This document shows, one piece after another, positions 461 through 25,945 of a stretch of DNA of 32,000 nucleotides. The DNA comes from Candidatus Methylomirabilis limnetica (lineage in GTDB: Bacteria; Methylomirabilota; Methylomirabilia; Methylomirabilales; Methylomirabilaceae). The translations under genes were made by a program, and so were the position numbers. The notes under the pieces are model-generated. The model worked only from the letters and a program-made list of their open reading frames with translations, was not told where the DNA came from and made no database searches. The stretch lies in contig NZ_NVQC01000040.1 in assembly GCF_003044035.1 (NCBI RefSeq), positions 1-32,000 of the forward strand, given 5' to 3'. Within the stretch, counting starts at the first letter, position 1, and the number at the start of each line of letters is the position of its first letter.

Positions 461-897
461 TATTTGTCTCTCCTTCTTGTCCACGACCTTGCGTTCGTTT
501 ACCCCTGGACTCCAGATCGACTTCCTGGGGCCCTTCATCCGCTTGAGCCTGTTGCATTTACTCTTACGCTCACTCGGCCTGGAAGCTCATCTGACGCTCA
601 CCGAAATGCGCCAGCTTGGCAGGCAGTTCCAGTAGGATTTCCCCCTTTCTCACGCACGAACTCTACCAAGGGCGGCAAGTCGCGTCAAGGCCAGAGAGCA
701 GAAAAGACGTTATTGACGCCACCTTCGCCTTTTCGGGACAGATAACCACTATATGATCTTGTCAGCCAGGCATGCTCATGCGGGAGTGCCGGAATATATA
801 CGGGGCCGCGTCGGAAGGCCTGAAGGAAAGCAAAAGCCACGCGGTCAGGGTTTAGTCCGTCCGTTCGAGCTTGAAGGACAGCACCGTTTGTCGTATC

Positions 898-1051
898 GTA
901 ACTACAAGGTAGATAGGCTGAAGGCTGAAGGCTTTTAGGGGTAAGTCATGCGTGATCAAAGAAAACTTAGAAAAGGTCTTGAATGGCTCGATTCGTGCCT
1001 TGCGAGATAATTTAGAACCTTCAGCCTTCAGCCTAAACACCTTGTAGTTAC
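898..1051 (+). mobile_element. MITE-like hairpin-ended miniature element, copy 1 (154 bp)
   Basis: Terminal inverted repeats GTAACTACAAGGT / ACCTTGTAGTTAC. Subterminal 17-bp arms of AGGCTGA heptamers. Perfect 8-bp flanking direct repeat GTCGTATC (890-897 and 1052-1059). Collinear second copy at 19020-19175. No transposase-sized ORF. Confidence 0.7.
948..1010 (+). CDS. Candidate 20-aa micro-ORF inside MITE copy 1 (MRDQRKLRKGLEWLDSCLAR)
   Basis: AGGGG-N6-ATG. The ORF is intact in both element copies. Three of the 5 nucleotide differences between copies are synonymous. Statistically weak (n=5). Confidence 0.25.
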   Translation: MRDQRKLRKGLEWLDSCLAR

Positions 1052-1225
1052 GTCGTATCATGGGCCGCACCTTGGGGGTGAAAGGGAATGTGATCGCGCA
1101 CCCCCTGCATCTCCGCTCCTCAAGCGACCCACAAGGTTCTTACTTCAGTCCTATCCGTTTTAGGGTGAGCCGTCAGGAGCGTTGGCAGCGATCCCGCATG
1201 CAGAAGGGGCCTGAGAGACACGTGG

Positions 1226-4073: not shown

Positions 4074-4134
4074 CGCGGTGTTCCACAAGTCTTTCGACAT
4101 ATTCGATAGCTCAAGGCCATAAAATCCCCCCTAA

Positions 4135-4155
4135 CCCCCCTTTTGAAAAGGGGGG
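4135..4155 (+). terminator. C6T4-G-A4G6 perfect palindrome downstream of 3510..4073 (possible terminator hairpin)
   Basis: CCCCCCTTTTGAAAAGGGGGG lies 62 nt after the stop codon. There is no clean downstream T-tract, so function is uncertain. Confidence 0.3.
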
Positions 4156-4173
4156 AAGTCGAACAGGATACTC

Positions 4174-6283: not shown

Positions 6284-7033
6284 ATGTCTGGACATTCTAA
6301 GTGGTCGGGCATCAAACACAAGAAGGCTAAGATAGATGCCATTCGCGGCCGTGCGTTTACCAAGCTGATCAGGGAGGTCACGGTGGCCGCCAGGGTGGGT
6401 GGCGGCGACCCGATCGGGAATCCTCGTCTTCGATTGGCGATCGAGAGGGCCAAGGCTGTCAATATGCCCCAGGACAACATCCAGCGAGCCATCATGAAGG
6501 GTACGGGTGAGCTCCCCGGTGTATCCTACGAGGAGTATGTCTACGAAGGGTACGGGCCGGGAGGCGTCGCCGTCCTGCTTGAGGTGTTGACCGACAACAA
6601 AAATAGGACCGCCCCGGAGTTCCGCAAGGCATTTTCCAAGTACGGGGGAAACCTGGGTGAATCAGGATGCGTCGCGTGGCTGTTTGAAAAAAAGGGGCTG
6701 ATTCAAGTGGAAGCGGCCACGGTTGATGAGGATCGGCTGCTTAGCGTTGCGCTGGAGGCAGGCGCCGAGGATGTTCTCCGGTCAGACGATACCTTCGAGA
6801 TTATCACCGCGCCCAAAGACCTCGATCGGGTCAAAGAGTCTCTGGCGAAGGAAAAGATCGAGATCGCCGATGGAGAAGTGACTATGCTTCCGCAGACCAC
6901 CGTCAAGCTGGAAGGGAAGCAGGCGCAGCACATGCTACAGTTGATGGAGGCGCTTGAAGATCACGACGATGTCCAGAATGTGTACGCGAACTTCGATATC
7001 CCCGAAGAGATCATGGCGGCAGTGACCGGCTAG
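6284..7033 (+). CDS. yebC: YebC/PmpR-family transcriptional regulator
   Basis: Canonical N-terminus [22 protein letters not shown] with AGGAGG 7 nt upstream. The longer ORF from 6203 is a non-homologous extension. Conserved synteny with ruvCAB. Confidence 0.92.
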
Positions 7034-7090
7034 GCCTGTGGTGAGCTCTGTCGAACCATCGGGTCGCCAGATGATCCCGATGGAACTGCT

Positions 7091-19019: not shown

Positions 19020-19175
19020 GTAACTACTCAGGTAGATAGGCTGAAGGCTTTTAGGGGTAAGCCATGCGTGATCATACAAAACTCCGAAAAGGTCTTGAGT
19101 GGCTCGATTCGTGCCTTGCGAGATAATTTAGAACCTTCAGTCTTCAGCCTTCAGTCTAAACACCTGAGTAGTTAC
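19020..19175 (+). mobile_element. MITE-like hairpin-ended miniature element, copy 2 (156 bp), in the nirS-nirJ spacer
   Basis: Termini GTAACTACTCAGGT / ACCTGAGTAGTTAC. Flanks CCCAGAGG (19012-19019) and CCCGGAGG (19176-19183). Core nearly identical to copy 1. Heptamer arms are unequal (10 nt left, 24 nt right). Confidence 0.7.
19064..19126 (+). CDS. Candidate 20-aa micro-ORF inside MITE copy 2 (MRDHTKLRKGLEWLDSCLAR)
   Basis: Same frame, length and stop as 948-1010, with AGGGG upstream. Confidence 0.25.
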   Translation: MRDHTKLRKGLEWLDSCLAR

Positions 19176-19205
19176 CCCGGAGGAAACATCATAACACGTA
19201 ATAGA

Positions 19206-22394: not shown

Positions 22395-22404
22395 ATGTTG
22401 CATA

Positions 22405-22447
22405 CAATAGACGCAATAGACGCCGCCCGCAATGGACGCAATAGACG
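22405..22447. repeat. 9-mer repeat cluster at the mtnA/slt junction
   Basis: CAATAGACG x2, CCGCCCG, CAATGGACG, CAATAGACG. Same family as 9309-9335. Confidence 0.6.
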
Positions 22448-22469
22448 CCGCAGATGTACGCCTGCGGGC

Positions 22470-24686
22470 ATGACGGTGATGCTGATGCTACTGCTGGCAC
22501 CGCTGCACGCCACCGCCTCGCCTGAAACGCCACCAACATCTCTGTGGCAGGAGGCGCTTACGCGCATCGGGACCCACGATTACCATGGCGCGGCGCCCCT
22601 GCTTGACGATCTGCGGCAACGCGATGGCTTCGCCAAAGCCCACGAGGCCAACTTCCTCCTGGGCGTGGTGCTGTACCGACAGAAGCAGTGGCAGGAGGCC
22701 GCCGACGCATTGGAGGTGGCCGCAACGCAGGTGCCTGTACTTGGGGATTATGCCCTGTACTACGCCGCATCAGCCTATCAGACCCTTGGCCTGAACTCTC
22801 GGGCGCTGGCTGTACTGTCGCGCCTGCTTCACGAGCATCCGGGGAGCCTGCTCACCGAGCGAGCTCGACAAGAGCGCGCACGGCTTTATTCCGACGCTAA
22901 CCAACTCGCGCAGGCTGAGGAGGCGTACCGGGATTACCTGGCCCACGCCTCAGGCGAGGCGAGGCGACGGGAAGCGCAACTCGCGCTGGCAGAGATTGCC
23001 GTCAAGGCGGATAAGCGCCGGGAGGCCGAAGCACTGCTACGCGAGCTGTGGCTCAAGTGGCCGGCGAGCCGGGAGGCGGCTCGAGCCGGCGAACTCCTGG
23101 CCTCAATGGCAGAAGTACCACCCTTCACCCTTGATGAGCAGTTCGATCGGGCGCTCAGTCTGTACCGTAGCAGCCAGTACGCCCAGGCAATTACCGCGTT
23201 CACACCCTTCTTGCCTGTCCCCGACCCCGATCGGGGAAGCGATGGCTCGCCCCCTCTCGACAGAGCGCGGGACAGGTTTGCCTCTCGCGCAAGGCTCTGG
23301 AGCGGCGTCAGTTACTTTCACCGCCGGGACTACAGCCGAGCCATCAGCCTCCTGTCGCCTCTGGGTCAGGACCACTCCCTTCATTCGGCGGAAGCGCTGT
23401 ACTGGACCGGGCGAAGCCATGTCAGAGTTAACGACAGCGAAAAAGCCATCACAACGTGGACCCGCCTGGTCGACGCCTATCCGAATAGTCCCTTTAGCGC
23501 CGAGTCACTCTACCTGATGGCGCTCCAGTACAGTGACGATGGCAAACCGAAACGGGCTGTACGGGCTCTCACCAGGCTCCTCAGGGACCACCCGTCTAGC
23601 CAGTTCGCCGACGCCGCCCTCTGGACTCGGGCCTGGATCCATTATCGACAGTCGGCTCTTACGGAGGCACTTGCTGATCTGCAACGACTGCACGCGAGGG
23701 GTGCGTCAGCCTCGCGGTTTCAGGTGCAAGCTCTCTATTGGCAGGGCCGGGTCCTTGAAGGTCTGAAAAAGAGGGGGAAGGCTGTAGCGGCGTACCGAGG
23801 GCTACTCAGTACCCACAAGAACGAGGACTATTACGTCGAACAGACGCGTCTGCGCCTGAAGACGCTGGAGCCACAGTCTGCGCGTGCCCTCGCGCTCGCC
23901 ACGCCAAGCGAGCCTTCAGGGGTCAGTGGTCAGGGGTTAGCCGTTCCTGTACCCTGTACCCTATCCCCTCAACCCTGTTCTTCCGAGGTGGCCAAAGCCA
24001 GACTGCTCAAGGATCTGAACCTGCGGGAGGAGGCATCAGAGGAGTTCTGGGCCCTCGCAGGGCGGTCTGCGGAAGACCGCGGACTCTTATACGAGGCCTG
24101 TAGCGCGTTGCTCGACTTGGGTTATCTCGATAAGAGTGTGGCGATCGCGAAGCGCCTCCTTCGTCCGCTGTATGCCCACAGTCGGCCCGCGGGGCCGGTG
24201 CCGAGATATTGGGAGTTCCTCTACCCGCTCGGATATTGGGATCTGGTACGGGGGCAGAGCGCGCAGTATACCCTTGATCCATACCTGGTTGTTGCGCTGA
24301 TTCGGGAGGAGAGCGCGTTTAGCGAACGGGTAGTGTCGTCTTCCGGGGCTGTTGGGCTGATGCAACTGCTCCCCACAACCGCCAATTACATGGCCAATGC
24401 GAAAGGCAGCTCTGGGGATCCGACGAAGCTCGACACGCCGGCCAATAATATTGCGCTTGGCACTCGATACCTGGCGATGATGCTCGATGAGTTCAAGGGC
24501 AACTGGGCCAGGGCCTTAGCCGCATACAATGCTGGGCCAAACCAGGTGCGTCGCTGGTTGGGACGGTTGGGGGATCGCACTGATGACGAGTTCATTGAAG
24601 AGATCCCGTTCTCAGAGACGAGAGCGTATGTGAAGCGGGTCCTCGGAAGCTATTACCGCTATCGAGCGCAGTATAGTAAAGGATAG
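22470..24686 (+). CDS. slt: Soluble lytic murein transglycosylase (Slt70-like, TPR/superhelical N-domain + SLT domain)
   Basis: Signal-like MTVMLMLLLAPLHATASPE from ATG 22470. SLT motifs ESAFSERVVSSSGAVGLMQL and AYNAGP. The longest ORF begins at 22395 inside the 9-mer repeats. Confidence 0.85.
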   Translation: MTVMLMLLLAPLHATASPETPPTSLWQEALTRIGTHDYHGAAPLLDDLRQRDGFAKAHEANFLLGVVLYRQKQWQEAADALEVAATQVPVLGDYALYYAASAYQTLGLNSRALAVLSRLLHEHPGSLLTERARQERARLYSDANQLAQAEEAYRDYLAHASGEARRREAQLALAEIAVKADKRREAEALLRELWLKWPASREAARAGELLASMAEVPPFTLDEQFDRALSLYRSSQYAQAITAFTPFLPVPDPDRGSDGSPPLDRARDRFASRARLWSGVSYFHRRDYSRAISLLSPLGQDHSLHSAEALYWTGRSHVRVNDSEKAITTWTRLVDAYPNSPFSAESLYLMALQYSDDGKPKRAVRALTRLLRDHPSSQFADAALWTRAWIHYRQSALTEALADLQRLHARGASASRFQVQALYWQGRVLEGLKKRGKAVAAYRGLLSTHKNEDYYVEQTRLRLKTLEPQSARALALATPSEPSGVSGQGLAVPVPCTLSPQPCSSEVAKARLLKDLNLREEASEEFWALAGRSAEDRGLLYEACSALLDLGYLDKSVAIAKRLLRPLYAHSRPAGPVPRYWEFLYPLGYWDLVRGQSAQYTLDPYLVVALIREESAFSERVVSSSGAVGLMQLLPTTANYMANAKGSSGDPTKLDTPANNIALGTRYLAMMLDEFKGNWARALAAYNAGPNQVRRWLGRLGDRTDDEFIEEIPFSETRAYVKRVLGSYYRYRAQYSKG
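23921..23983 (+). repeat. Composite heptamer element inside slt (9 heptamers, 63 nt)
   Basis: GGTCAGT GGTCAGG GGTTAGC CGTTCCT GTACCCT GTACCCT ATCCCCT CAACCCT GTTCTTC. The last 35 nt match queA 10146-10180 at 30 of 35 positions. Confidence 0.7.
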
Positions 24687-24708
24687 GGTGGAGGGTGGAG
24701 GAAGGTGT
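24681..24708 (-). repeat. Partial ACCCT-type heptamer array at the slt/coaBC junction
   Basis: + strand GGATAGG GTGGAGG GTGGAGG AAGGTGT; the complement reads CCTCCAC CCTCCAC CCTATCC. Contains the slt stop TAG and the GTG at 24695. Confidence 0.45.
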
Positions 24709-24721
24709 GGACAACGGGCAA

Positions 24722-25945
24722 ATGACGCTACAGGGGAAACAGATCGTGCTGGGCGTGACCGGGAGTATCGCCGCCTATAAGGCCGTAGAGCTTGTGCGGG
24801 CGCTCACCACGGCGGGGGCCGGTGTTCGGGTCGTCATGACCGCCTCGGCCCAGCGCTTTGTGACCCCCCTGACGTTTGCCACCCTCTCGCGGCAGGCGGT
24901 AATGACCGACCGTGTGACCCTGGAGGACGAGACGACGATGCCGCACATCGCCACGGCGCATGAGGCCGACCTGCTCCTGGTCGCGCCTGCCACCGCCAAT
25001 ACCATCGCCAAGTTCGCTCAGGGGCTGGCCGACGATCTACTGAGCACCCTCTTCCTGGCGTGGACGCGGCCGGTTGTGCTTGCGCCCGCCATGGACGCGG
25101 CCATGTACCGCCACCCCGCCGTTCAAGAGAATCTGGCGCGATTGCAGGGCTGGGGGGTGCGACTTGTGGGTCCGGCGACTGGTGAGCTGGCCTCGGGCGT
25201 GTGGGGTCCCGGCCGTCTGTCCGAGATCGGCGAGATCGTGCAGGCCGTGACCGAGACGCTCTGTCCCGTACGCGACCTGTGCGGCGAGGTGATCCTGATC
25301 ACCGCCGGCCCGACGCGTGAGCCGATCGATCCGGTACGCTACCTCAGTACCCGCGCCTCCGGCAAGATGGGGTACGCCCTGGCAGAGGAAGCGGTGGCGC
25401 GAGGCGCGCGTACCATCCTGGTCAGTGGCCCGACCCACGTGAGCCCGCCTACGGGGGTCGAACTCATCCAGATCGAGACCGCCCTGCAGATGCGCACGGC
25501 TGTGCTGGACCGATTGGCCGAGGCTACGGTGGTGATCAAAGCAGCCGCGGTCAGCGATTATCGTGTCGCGCAGCCGGCTGACGCCAAGCTCTCGAAAGGC
25601 GAGGCGCCCCTGACGCTGGAACTGGTGCCTACTCCGGACATCCTTAAAGAGATTGGTGCTCAGAAGGGCGCACGGATTGTCGTCGGCTTCGCGGCCGAGA
25701 CCGGCGAGGTTGTGCGGCGGGCTCACCATAAGCTGATGGCCAAGCAGCTCGACCTGATCGTGGCGAACGACGTGAGCCAGGCCGGGGCCGGGTTCGCGTG
25801 CGACACCAATCTGGTGATCCTACTCGATCCGGCAGGGGGGGCTGAAGAGCTCCCACTGCTTCCCAAACGGCAGGTGGCGCGTCACATCCTCGACCGCGTG
25901 GTGGGCCTCCGGCAGCAGAAAAACAGGGTAGAGGGTGGAGGGTAG
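24722..25945 (+). CDS. coaBC: Bifunctional phosphopantothenoylcysteine decarboxylase / phosphopantothenate-cysteine ligase CoaBC
   Basis: Flavoprotein motif [11 protein letters not shown] near the N-terminus from ATG 24722. C-terminal CoaB domain ([25 protein letters not shown]). The GTG 24695 extension lies in the repeat. Confidence 0.93.

Follow-up and report, generated by a model that had tools for sequence, protein, structure and literature searches.

Do similar strings of heptamers in two housekeeping genes represent one shared genetic element, a selected nucleic-acid structure, or repeat DNA that passes through the filter of translation? The question is raised by slt and queA in a 32,000-nt stretch of Candidatus Methylomirabilis limnetica (contig NZ_NVQC01000040.1, positions 1 to 32,000; hereafter ‘the window’, meaning this whole stretch). 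The original prediction, made from the sequence, held that a single module is translated in different frames in the two genes and is therefore shaped at the nucleic-acid level. We conclude, with a probability of roughly two-thirds, that both segments are heptanucleotide simple sequence repeat (SSR) tracts, resembling the long SSRs (LSSRs) of prokaryotes and the short tandemly repeated repetitive (STRR) sequences of cyanobacteria. They would stem from a population of tracts that pervades Methylomirabilis genomes, is changed at the DNA level and is filtered by translation.

Two tracts of one unit family, read in different frames

The slt open reading frame (ORF; 22395..24686, plus strand) encodes 763 aa with a TPR superhelical region and an SLT lytic transglycosylase domain; the product has the same sequence as PTL34864.1 from Candidatus Methylomirabilis limnetica. 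As predicted, positions 23921-23983 read as nine heptamers in a single register (GGTCAGT GGTCAGG GGTTAGC CGTTCCT GTACCCT GTACCCT ATCCCCT CAACCCT GTTCTTC). The segment comprises a G-rich left arm (23916..23941, plus strand; TCAGGGG TCAGTGG TCAGGGG TTAGC, encoding SGVSGQGLA) and a C-rich right arm (23942..23983, plus strand; CGTTCCT GTACCCT GTACCCT ATCCCCT CAACCCT GTTCTTC, encoding VPVPCTLSPQPCSS). Its 63 nt do amount to the length of 21 codons, but the tract opens at codon position 3 rather than at a codon boundary.

queA (9589..10728, plus strand; 379 aa, QueA) carries a 90-nt insert of 30 codons at 10093..10182 (plus strand), in heptamer register from its first base. A left arm of the ‘S’ class (10093..10127, plus strand; CAGCGAT CAGCGAT CAGCAGT CAGCAGT CAGCAAA) is followed by a spacer of degenerate units (10128..10145, plus strand; AGACGATCTGACTTCTCC), across which lag-7 identity is still 0.51, and by a right arm (10146..10182, plus strand; ATACCCT ATACCCT ATCCCCT AGACCCT plus the tail GTTCTTTTG). 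These boundaries had been regarded as ambiguous; comparison with orthologues fixes them unambiguously.

Positions 23949-23983 of slt match queA 10146-10180 at 30 of 35 sites, and the frames do differ: GTACCCT opens at codon position 1 in slt, ATACCCT at codon position 3 in queA. The location of the tract in each gene sets the frame, so that the slt and queA peptides are unrelated (VPVPCTLSPQPCSS versus SPYPIPYPLDPVLL).

A discrete shared module with a fixed block order, in contrast, is not supported. The units vary by locus, and 30/35 lies within the range of arrays of the same family: unrelated ACCCT-type arrays from other phyla (n = 135) agree with slt at 23.6 of 35 positions on average, and 5.9% of unrelated pairs reach at least 30/35. 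The match goes well beyond what random DNA would give, yet for two arrays of the same NNACCCT unit family it is not exceptional. The 7-nt tails agree at six positions, a level reached by 0 of the 135 background arrays, but the tail does not recur, with no third copy of CCCTGTTCTT in the window or in seven related loci. A one-mismatch match to it at 25919-25928 (minus strand) turned out to be conserved coaBC codons (QKN) adjoining an array. The two tracts may be related by direct copying, though this is unproven.

As far as the compared sequences indicate, what recurs is an architecture rather than a fixed sequence, namely an inverted pair of arrays. In a typical tract, about four G- or purine-rich units would form the first arm and four to five C-rich units the second, separated by a degenerate spacer that keeps the 7-nt register. 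The opposite orientations of these units (..CTGA, ..TAG..) bring stop codons, and a heptamer array passes through all three frames every 21 nt. Since the complementary orientation holds TGA or TAG, only TCAG../..ACCCT would persist within an ORF unless units were edited. The sense-strand orientation in ORFs is thus probably largely forced by stops, which would account for much of the common order and orientation of the slt and queA segments.

Period-7 arrays in the window and in related DNA

Self-identity at lag 7 is 0.60-0.63 in the slt and queA tracts and 0.78 in a further array in priA, compared to ~0.15-0.35 at other lags. A lag scan of the whole window returned three period-7 arrays at a score of at least 12 and nine at a score of at least 10, with no arrays at periods 4-6 or 8-12 and none in shuffles; Tandem Repeats Finder (TRF) reported 11 period-7 arrays in the same 32 kb. 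To this we added related DNA, giving ~216 kb of Methylomirabilales sequence (the window and 14 loci, much of it the same syntenic region from several genomes), in which TRF produced 65 rows at period 7, 9 at period 14, 11 at period 8 and 16 at period 9. The control, 271 kb around queA from 79 other bacteria of other phyla, yielded 26, 25 and 48 rows at periods 7, 8 and 9. Period-7 tracts are about three times denser than in the control bacteria.

The units can be grouped into a small number of families (AGGGTAT/ATACCCT; AGGCTGA/TCAGCCT and TCAGCGG; AGGTGCG; GGTTCAC/GTGAACC; GAGAGCC/GGCTCTC) that reappear at several loci, often as inverted pairs, and those of slt and queA are found in intergenic DNA as well. 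We therefore see next to no chance that the period is a by-product of selection for Pro-rich linkers and the likeness a coincidence. Both peptides are indeed Pro-rich and lie in linkers or loops, and the slt peptide is conserved; codon-level selection, however, cannot yield a 7-nt period, their units are also present outside coding sequence and in three frames, and shuffles produce no arrays.

Arm replacement at a fixed site in queA

The queA site holds an insert in nearly all Methylomirabilales orthologues, exactly 90 nt long and in heptamer register in seven of nine loci (eight of ten counting locus L134). At this site 73 QueAs from other phyla have 7-13 residues versus 34 in Methylomirabilis, and residues ~170-197 are missing from the QueAs in the PDB. 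AlphaFold2 modelled residues 164-217 without secondary structure and with a predicted local distance difference test score (pLDDT) below 50. The insert is Methylomirabilales-specific and sits within a predicted disordered loop. A metagenome scan for QueA relatives, dominated by universal QueA motifs, had returned one NC10 locus and 79 loci of other phyla; these served as outgroup and control. Separately, the QueA database entries P0210, P0211, P0214, P0215 and P0218, all on long contigs, have 320 aa and begin at residue ~60; in some strains the start may have been called differently or the gene disrupted upstream.

Insert lengths among 112 QueA orthologues form two series, one of 30 (41 sequences), 23 (8), 16 (3) and 9 aa (1), the other of 31/24/17/10 aa, both with steps of 7 aa, or 21 nt. 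A 15-aa deletion allele was found inside one 90% cluster. The window and locus L004 are 97-100% identical per 100 nt across 5 kb on either side of the insert, yet their left arms are only 39% identical, as opposed to 93% for the right arms. L004 carries four NAGGGTA units in place of the S-class left arm of the window; the spacer is replaced as well, and the four bases beyond the last ACCCT differ too. Comparing the sequences, we found no simple frameshift or inversion that converts a G-class into an S-class left arm. Arms from different genomes but of one class show 82-96% identity, against only 46-66% at third codon positions in the flanks. Left-arm class lacks phylogenetic signal: it requires 19 changes, against a permutation mean of 18.6 and a possible minimum of 3, on a single-gene neighbour-joining (NJ) tree of metagenome-derived QueA sequences with the insert masked. 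In G-class arms, both units that would place an in-frame TAG read CAG and GAG instead.

Together, the orthologue comparisons show that the sites of the tracts are fixed, lying at gene junctions or in a small number of permissive loops and linkers of proteins, and that the tracts change by 21-nt (three-unit) steps, by whole-arm replacement between near-identical strains and by adopting clade-specific units whose arms remain complementary. Translation is only a filter, excluding in-frame stops and lengths that are not multiples of three. The proposal of generation at the DNA level, with translation secondary, is supported by the intergenic copies, the absence of the insert from QueA of other phyla and its place in a predicted disordered loop, arm replacement, within-class arm conservation beyond that of neighbouring synonymous sites, the 21-nt steps and the TAG-avoiding units. 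The companion idea that intragenic lengths are multiples of 21 nt survives as a tendency, seen in the 7-aa steps, but not as a rule, as the queA insert measures 90 nt and priA segments differ by 6 and 8 aa.

All of ~112 QueA and ~60 Slt predicted proteins are in frame across the tract, in databases that would under-report frameshifted alleles. Within that limit, this speaks against contingency loci, in which gain or loss of a single heptamer would switch queA, slt or priA by frameshift (phase variation). Heptamer SSRs are described as mutable and as being used by known phase-variable loci (PMC8262952), and perfect four-unit arrays do exist in the queA alleles of loci L132 and L130. Still, queA, slt and priA are housekeeping genes and the arrays of the window are short and imperfect, which makes phase variation very improbable.

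Complementary arms and hairpin potential

In relatives, the queA tract is an inverted pair of heptamer arrays whose units differ by clade while the arms remain complementary. The arm register shifts by one unit between classes (i+j = 83 versus 90), hence we folded ten DNA sequences individually, shuffling each arm separately (300 shuffles), rather than scoring column-wise covariation. Strong hairpins emerged for L004, L006 and L133 (left NAGGGTA x4, right NNACCCT x4-5; minimum free energy (MFE) about -44 kcal/mol, z -4.6 to -6.4, 0/300 shuffles as stable) and for L131 of a distant clade (AGAGCCG x4 and GCTCTCG x5; MFE -51.5 kcal/mol, z -4.9). Values were lower for L130 (CACAGTT x4 and CCGTCAA x4; MFE -18.5 kcal/mol, z -2.5) and for L005 (AGGTGCG x4 with a different palindrome on the right; MFE -38.9 kcal/mol, z -2.9). 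There was no hairpin in the window queA (left CAGCGAT, right ACCCT-type; MFE -13.6 kcal/mol, z +0.15), in L132 (left CAGCGGT, right ACCCT-type; MFE -21.8 kcal/mol, z -0.4) or in L134 (z +1.6), and L007 has no left arm, just a C-rich arm of 48 nt. The slt hairpin is weak in the window (z about -2; -1.9) and absent in M. oxyfera.

These data bear on a second alternative, in which selection keeps the arms complementary because a queA mRNA hairpin, or a G-quadruplex (G4) or i-motif formed by four G3 tracts, regulates expression or replication. In its favour, complementarity is held with entirely different units by clade (AGGGTA/TACCCT, AGAGCCG/GCTCTCG, ACAGTT/CCGTCAA), and the arms are better conserved than synonymous sites. 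Moreover, exactly four C3/G3 tracts occur in queA, slt and an array between coaBC and UDG, reminiscent of the four-unit preference of G4-forming heptamers (PMC4692102). G4 motifs accordingly lie opposite the right arms of queA (10149-10172, minus strand) and slt (23952-23975, minus strand) and at 25926-25949 (plus strand), each with four tracts of at least three G. Nevertheless, the hairpin is missing from three queA alleles and has lost an arm in a fourth, that of slt is weak or absent, the window shows no significant enrichment in G4 motifs (4 versus a shuffle mean of 2.4), and synonymous changes in an slt orthologue destroy the period without penalty. A search of the window against Rfam gave 0 matches at the gathering threshold. 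We consider a regulatory structure decidedly unlikely.

The right part of the L005 insert appears to belong to another repeat. A C6/G6 palindrome (AAAATCCCCCC..CCCCCCTTTTGAAAAGGGGGG) is intergenic in the window (4120-4160), and a full copy lies in frame within the queA insert of L005, a 94%-identical relative (L005 10535-10582; peptide SPHLPFTKGGHGGIW). This palindrome seems to represent a second family of dispersed repeats that uses the queA site as well.

Could the tracts instead be copies of a discrete mobile palindromic cassette, comprising a TCAG block, an ACCCT block and a GTTCTT tail, that entered queA and slt independently and is upheld by transposition or conversion from master copies? 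Such an element would resemble Rickettsia palindromic elements (RPEs) or MITEs (miniature transposable elements with inverted repeats). Several of the above observations point this way: the inverted-repeat architecture with strong hairpins in four relatives, unrelated cassettes at the same site in near-identical strains, the dispersed palindrome in the L005 allele, conservation within classes that exceeds synonymous sites without phylogenetic signal, and the 6/7 tail match. RPEs demonstrate that in-frame palindromic insertions into housekeeping genes exist (PMC10969869). On the other side, the copies lack conserved termini or a long consensus and have only the unit family in common, no target-site duplication is visible at the queA or slt boundaries, where the flanks are conserved host codons (PPYIKR and LDRERYQ), and neither the window nor the seven related loci contain CCCTGTTCTT a third time. 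The CTT of the queA GTTCTT tail is itself a conserved host Leu codon (PxLL in many orthologues). Tracts hold orthologous positions across deep divergence, the slt tract is ancient and protein-constrained, and frames differ here while RPE peptides are alike between copies. On balance, a mobile cassette seems unlikely, though it retains real weight.

An slt tract retained as protein

Homologue searches recovered Slt relatives from Methylomirabilis/NC10 only. Length variation in their linker is confined to the left part (SGVSGQGLA), which is exactly 7 aa shorter in several orthologues and is heptameric with other G-rich units per lineage (GGGAGGC, GGGTCAG, GGAGGTA). The C-rich part is kept genus-wide as the peptide P-C-x-x-S-P-x-P-C-S-S with both Cys conserved.

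Across the 13 codons of PVPCTLSPQPCSS, the window and locus L128 (Slt 72% identical) differ by five synonymous and no non-synonymous changes, and the synonymous changes disrupt the 7-nt period in L128. The two Cys are spaced 7 aa apart, corresponding to three units, and the translation of (CCCTGTA)n, PCTLYPV, agrees with the slt peptide at seven of nine residues. Given this substitution pattern, Cys spacing and match, the C-rich tract of slt is an old heptamer array that has been co-opted and is now under protein-level purifying selection as P-C-x5-P-C-S-S, a conclusion that applies to slt only. That proteins merely tolerate the DNA, as initially proposed, does not hold for slt.

At the other end of the gene, a degenerate 9-nt tandem repeat (CAATAGACG x5, 22405-22448) lies within the first 20 codons of the annotated ORF and precedes the signal-peptide-like MTVMLMLLLAPL; the true start of slt may be downstream. 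Database entries for the window Slt protein range from 733 to 777 aa.

Relation to known repeats

The closest known systems are the heptanucleotide LSSRs of prokaryotes and the STRRs of cyanobacteria. STRR heptamers (CCCCAGT, TTGGTCA, CAACAGT; mentioned in PMC4692102) of Calothrix, Anabaena and other heterocystous cyanobacteria are described as intergenic. The likeness lies in a few heptamer families dispersed as short tandem arrays in one genome; the Methylomirabilis units, in phylum NC10/Methylomirabilota, are others (NNACCCT, TCAGNNN, AGGCTGA etc.).

Among the long SSRs of prokaryotes, heptanucleotide repeats form the most frequent class (Mrazek 2007, as summarized in PMC4679880). As portrayed in the summaries of Mrazek, Guo & Shah 2007 (via PMC4679880, PMC4692102), LSSRs are head-to-tail 7-nt units with an over-represented period 7, patchily distributed across taxa, mostly intergenic and presumably subject to slippage. 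The tracts described here likewise consist of tandem 7-nt units beyond chance, with period 7 over-represented in the 216 kb sampled and with unit-number variation in relatives. They differ in often being inverted pairs in a common register at orthologous sites, in swapping whole arms between near-identical strains, and in that several lie in frame inside conserved housekeeping genes.

The G4-forming heptamers GGGNATC and GGGGA(C/T)T, known from Xanthomonas and Nostoc (Rehm et al. 2015, PMC4692102), share a G3-4 tract per unit, the four-unit preference and a position near gene ends. Here, however, the units are AGGGTAG, AGGGTGG and AGGGTAT, outside the consensus GGGNATC/GGGGAYT, G4 formation is predicted from sequence, and two of the three four-tract arrays are intra-ORF with the G-rich strand antisense. 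The TAACTGA repeats of marine Beggiatoaceae (MacGregor 2015, PMC4679880) resemble our ..CTGA heptamers (AGGCTGA, AGCTGAA) in filling stop-to-start gaps and in occurring inside ORFs, at permissive positions, only in the stop-free orientation; the unit is different, and inverted pairs are not described for Beggiatoaceae. RPEs (Ogata et al. 2000, reviewed in PMC10969869) are palindromic repeats translated in frame at permissive sites of unrelated housekeeping genes, as here, but have ~150 bp, a family consensus and a conserved encoded peptide, whereas the Methylomirabilis tracts share the 7-nt unit family only, in differing frames. Judged by their letters, the slt and queA tracts fall outside the sequence definitions of STRRs, GGGNATC repeats and RPEs or MITEs. 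A literature search found no papers tying Methylomirabilis to heptamer repeats.

Further arrays in the window and beyond

The priA array (30690..30728, plus strand; TCAGCGA TCAGCCG TCAGCCG TCAGGCA TCAGGCA TCAG, encoding FSDQPSAVRHQAS) is in frame, starting at codon position 2; its ORF shares the frame of 30452 and is cut off by the 3’ end of the window. The orthologous place in M. oxyfera is taken by another TCAG-type array, and in two further relatives the segment is shorter by 6-8 aa. The ORF at 14142..16511 (minus strand) is not priA but encodes a molybdopterin oxidoreductase.

Intergenic arrays occupy the space between a stop and the next start. AGGGTGG AGGGTGG AGG (24685..24701, plus strand) spans the slt stop to the coaBC start, where M. 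oxyfera has AGGCTAA AGACTGA AGGCTGA AGGATGA and L128 an inverted AGGGT/ACCCT pair. The coaBC-UDG array (25925..25954, plus strand; AGGGTAG and AGGGTGG x2), which contains the plus-strand G4 motif, lies at the 3’ end of coaBC and stops 5 nt short of the UDG ATG; its M. oxyfera counterpart is ATAGGGT x4. Both arrays end 5-10 nt before the next start, creating Shine-Dalgarno-like strings (GGAGG/GGTGGAG), and from their sequence a role in translational coupling is possible. Upstream of tgt (10765..10784, plus strand; AGCTGAA AGCTGAA CGCTGA), the near-identical strain L004 has other arrays instead.

Another inverted pair at 915..1034 consists of AGGCTGA x2.7 (915-933) and CCTTCAG x2.4 (1018-1034) around a core of ~85 nt, a second copy of which adjoins the intergenic array CTTCAGT CTTCAGC CTTCAGT CT (19135..19157, plus strand). 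A conserved sequence of ~95 nt with two copies in the window (855-1075 and 19060-19195) and one in L005 (12425-12560) resembles a small ORF’s 3’ end (..KGLEWLDSCLAR*), and TCAGCCT-type heptamers and ‘AAACACCT(G/T)..GTAGTTAC’ come after every copy. At 855-1075, AGGCTGA/TCAGCCT arrays in inverted orientation, together with inverted flanks (aactacaaggt / accttgtagtt), surround the copy and give it a MITE-like look. Near a methyltransferase gene start, L132 holds a 134-nt array of ~19 GGTGCGA-type heptamers (6920-7053), whose unit family is shared by the queA left arms of L005 and L134. The yajC 3’ end in the window (12201-12246) contains two copies of a 24-nt tandem repeat (78% match).

Beyond Methylomirabilales, a genome contig scan with ACCCTNNACCCTNNNCCCTNNACCCT placed NNACCCT arrays of at least four units, among the matches listed, in Cyanobacteriota, Acidobacteriota, Planctomycetota, Bacteroidota, Verrucomicrobiota, Patescibacteria, Aliivibrio fischeri and others, frequently accompanied by an inverted array rich in G. 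An Omnitrophota contig (L190; Ga0105164_10004340) has AGGGTAT/ATACCCT inverted pairs at gene junctions, with repeats listed at 260-358, 1408-1495 and 2291-2323. Its queA carries in-frame CCCTATA x4.7 in another loop than the Methylomirabilis insert (peptide SSLYPIPYTLYPK), where its nearest relative is 7 aa shorter. By its sequence, this would be an independent case of a heptamer tract within queA.

A DNA-level mechanism and its limits

The most likely mechanism is the joint action of slippage, template switching and conversion on dispersed heptamer repeats, filtered by translation. Replication slippage would alter unit number, intrastrand template switching between arms would keep or restore complementarity, and ectopic conversion would draw on other tracts of the same unit family. 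Near-complementarity of the queA tail ACCCTGTTCTTTTG to AAAAAGACAGGGT, the left end of G-class alleles (AAAAGAC-CAGGGT), would fit template switching between arms.

Several points weigh against this reading. All three processes are inferred rather than observed, no donor copy of the swapped queA block was identified, and plain slippage does not explain how four units are exchanged for four unrelated ones at constant length. High within-class conservation without phylogenetic signal is equally expected from a mobile element with master copies, and no unit-number or length polymorphism was seen in slt among 18 close Slt sequences. The support also comes from ~216 kb of DNA, much of which represents one syntenic region in several genomes, and from a single-gene NJ tree.

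Because of the full arm replacement, the constant 90 nt, the lack of phylogenetic signal and arm conservation above synonymous sites, we also considered a more far-reaching explanation. An active, largely sequence-independent process might install and swap inverted heptamer cassettes of about four units at fixed addresses, including essential ORFs, or the queA hairpin might be a functional RNA or DNA kept by compensatory evolution. We regard this as quite unlikely. If true, the cassette-swapping process would represent a convertible micro-cassette or mobile repeat of a new type, perhaps in many phyla besides Methylomirabilis. Most deserving of follow-up is the exchange of blocks at constant length between near-identical strains, which slippage alone does not explain.

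Under the reading we favour, that of heptamer SSR tracts filtered by translation, the locus touches a question that has stood since heptamers were found to dominate among long bacterial SSRs: why repeats of 7 nt are favoured in bacteria, and by what routes such tracts originate and spread. The queA site is a natural experiment in this respect, a fixed address in a conserved enzyme with S, G and K arms and deletion forms among near-identical strains, and with a built-in read-out, as the frame is preserved and stops are avoided. In practical terms, heptamer tracts inflate apparent protein divergence—QueAs that are ‘92% identical’ are flanked by DNA that is 97-100% identical—and they also make useful strain markers for Methylomirabilis populations. 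Side by side, the two genes illustrate two fates of repeat DNA once it is translated: the queA tract forms a loop, predicted to be disordered, that is replaced rapidly, the slt tract a peptide that was co-opted and keeps two conserved Cys.

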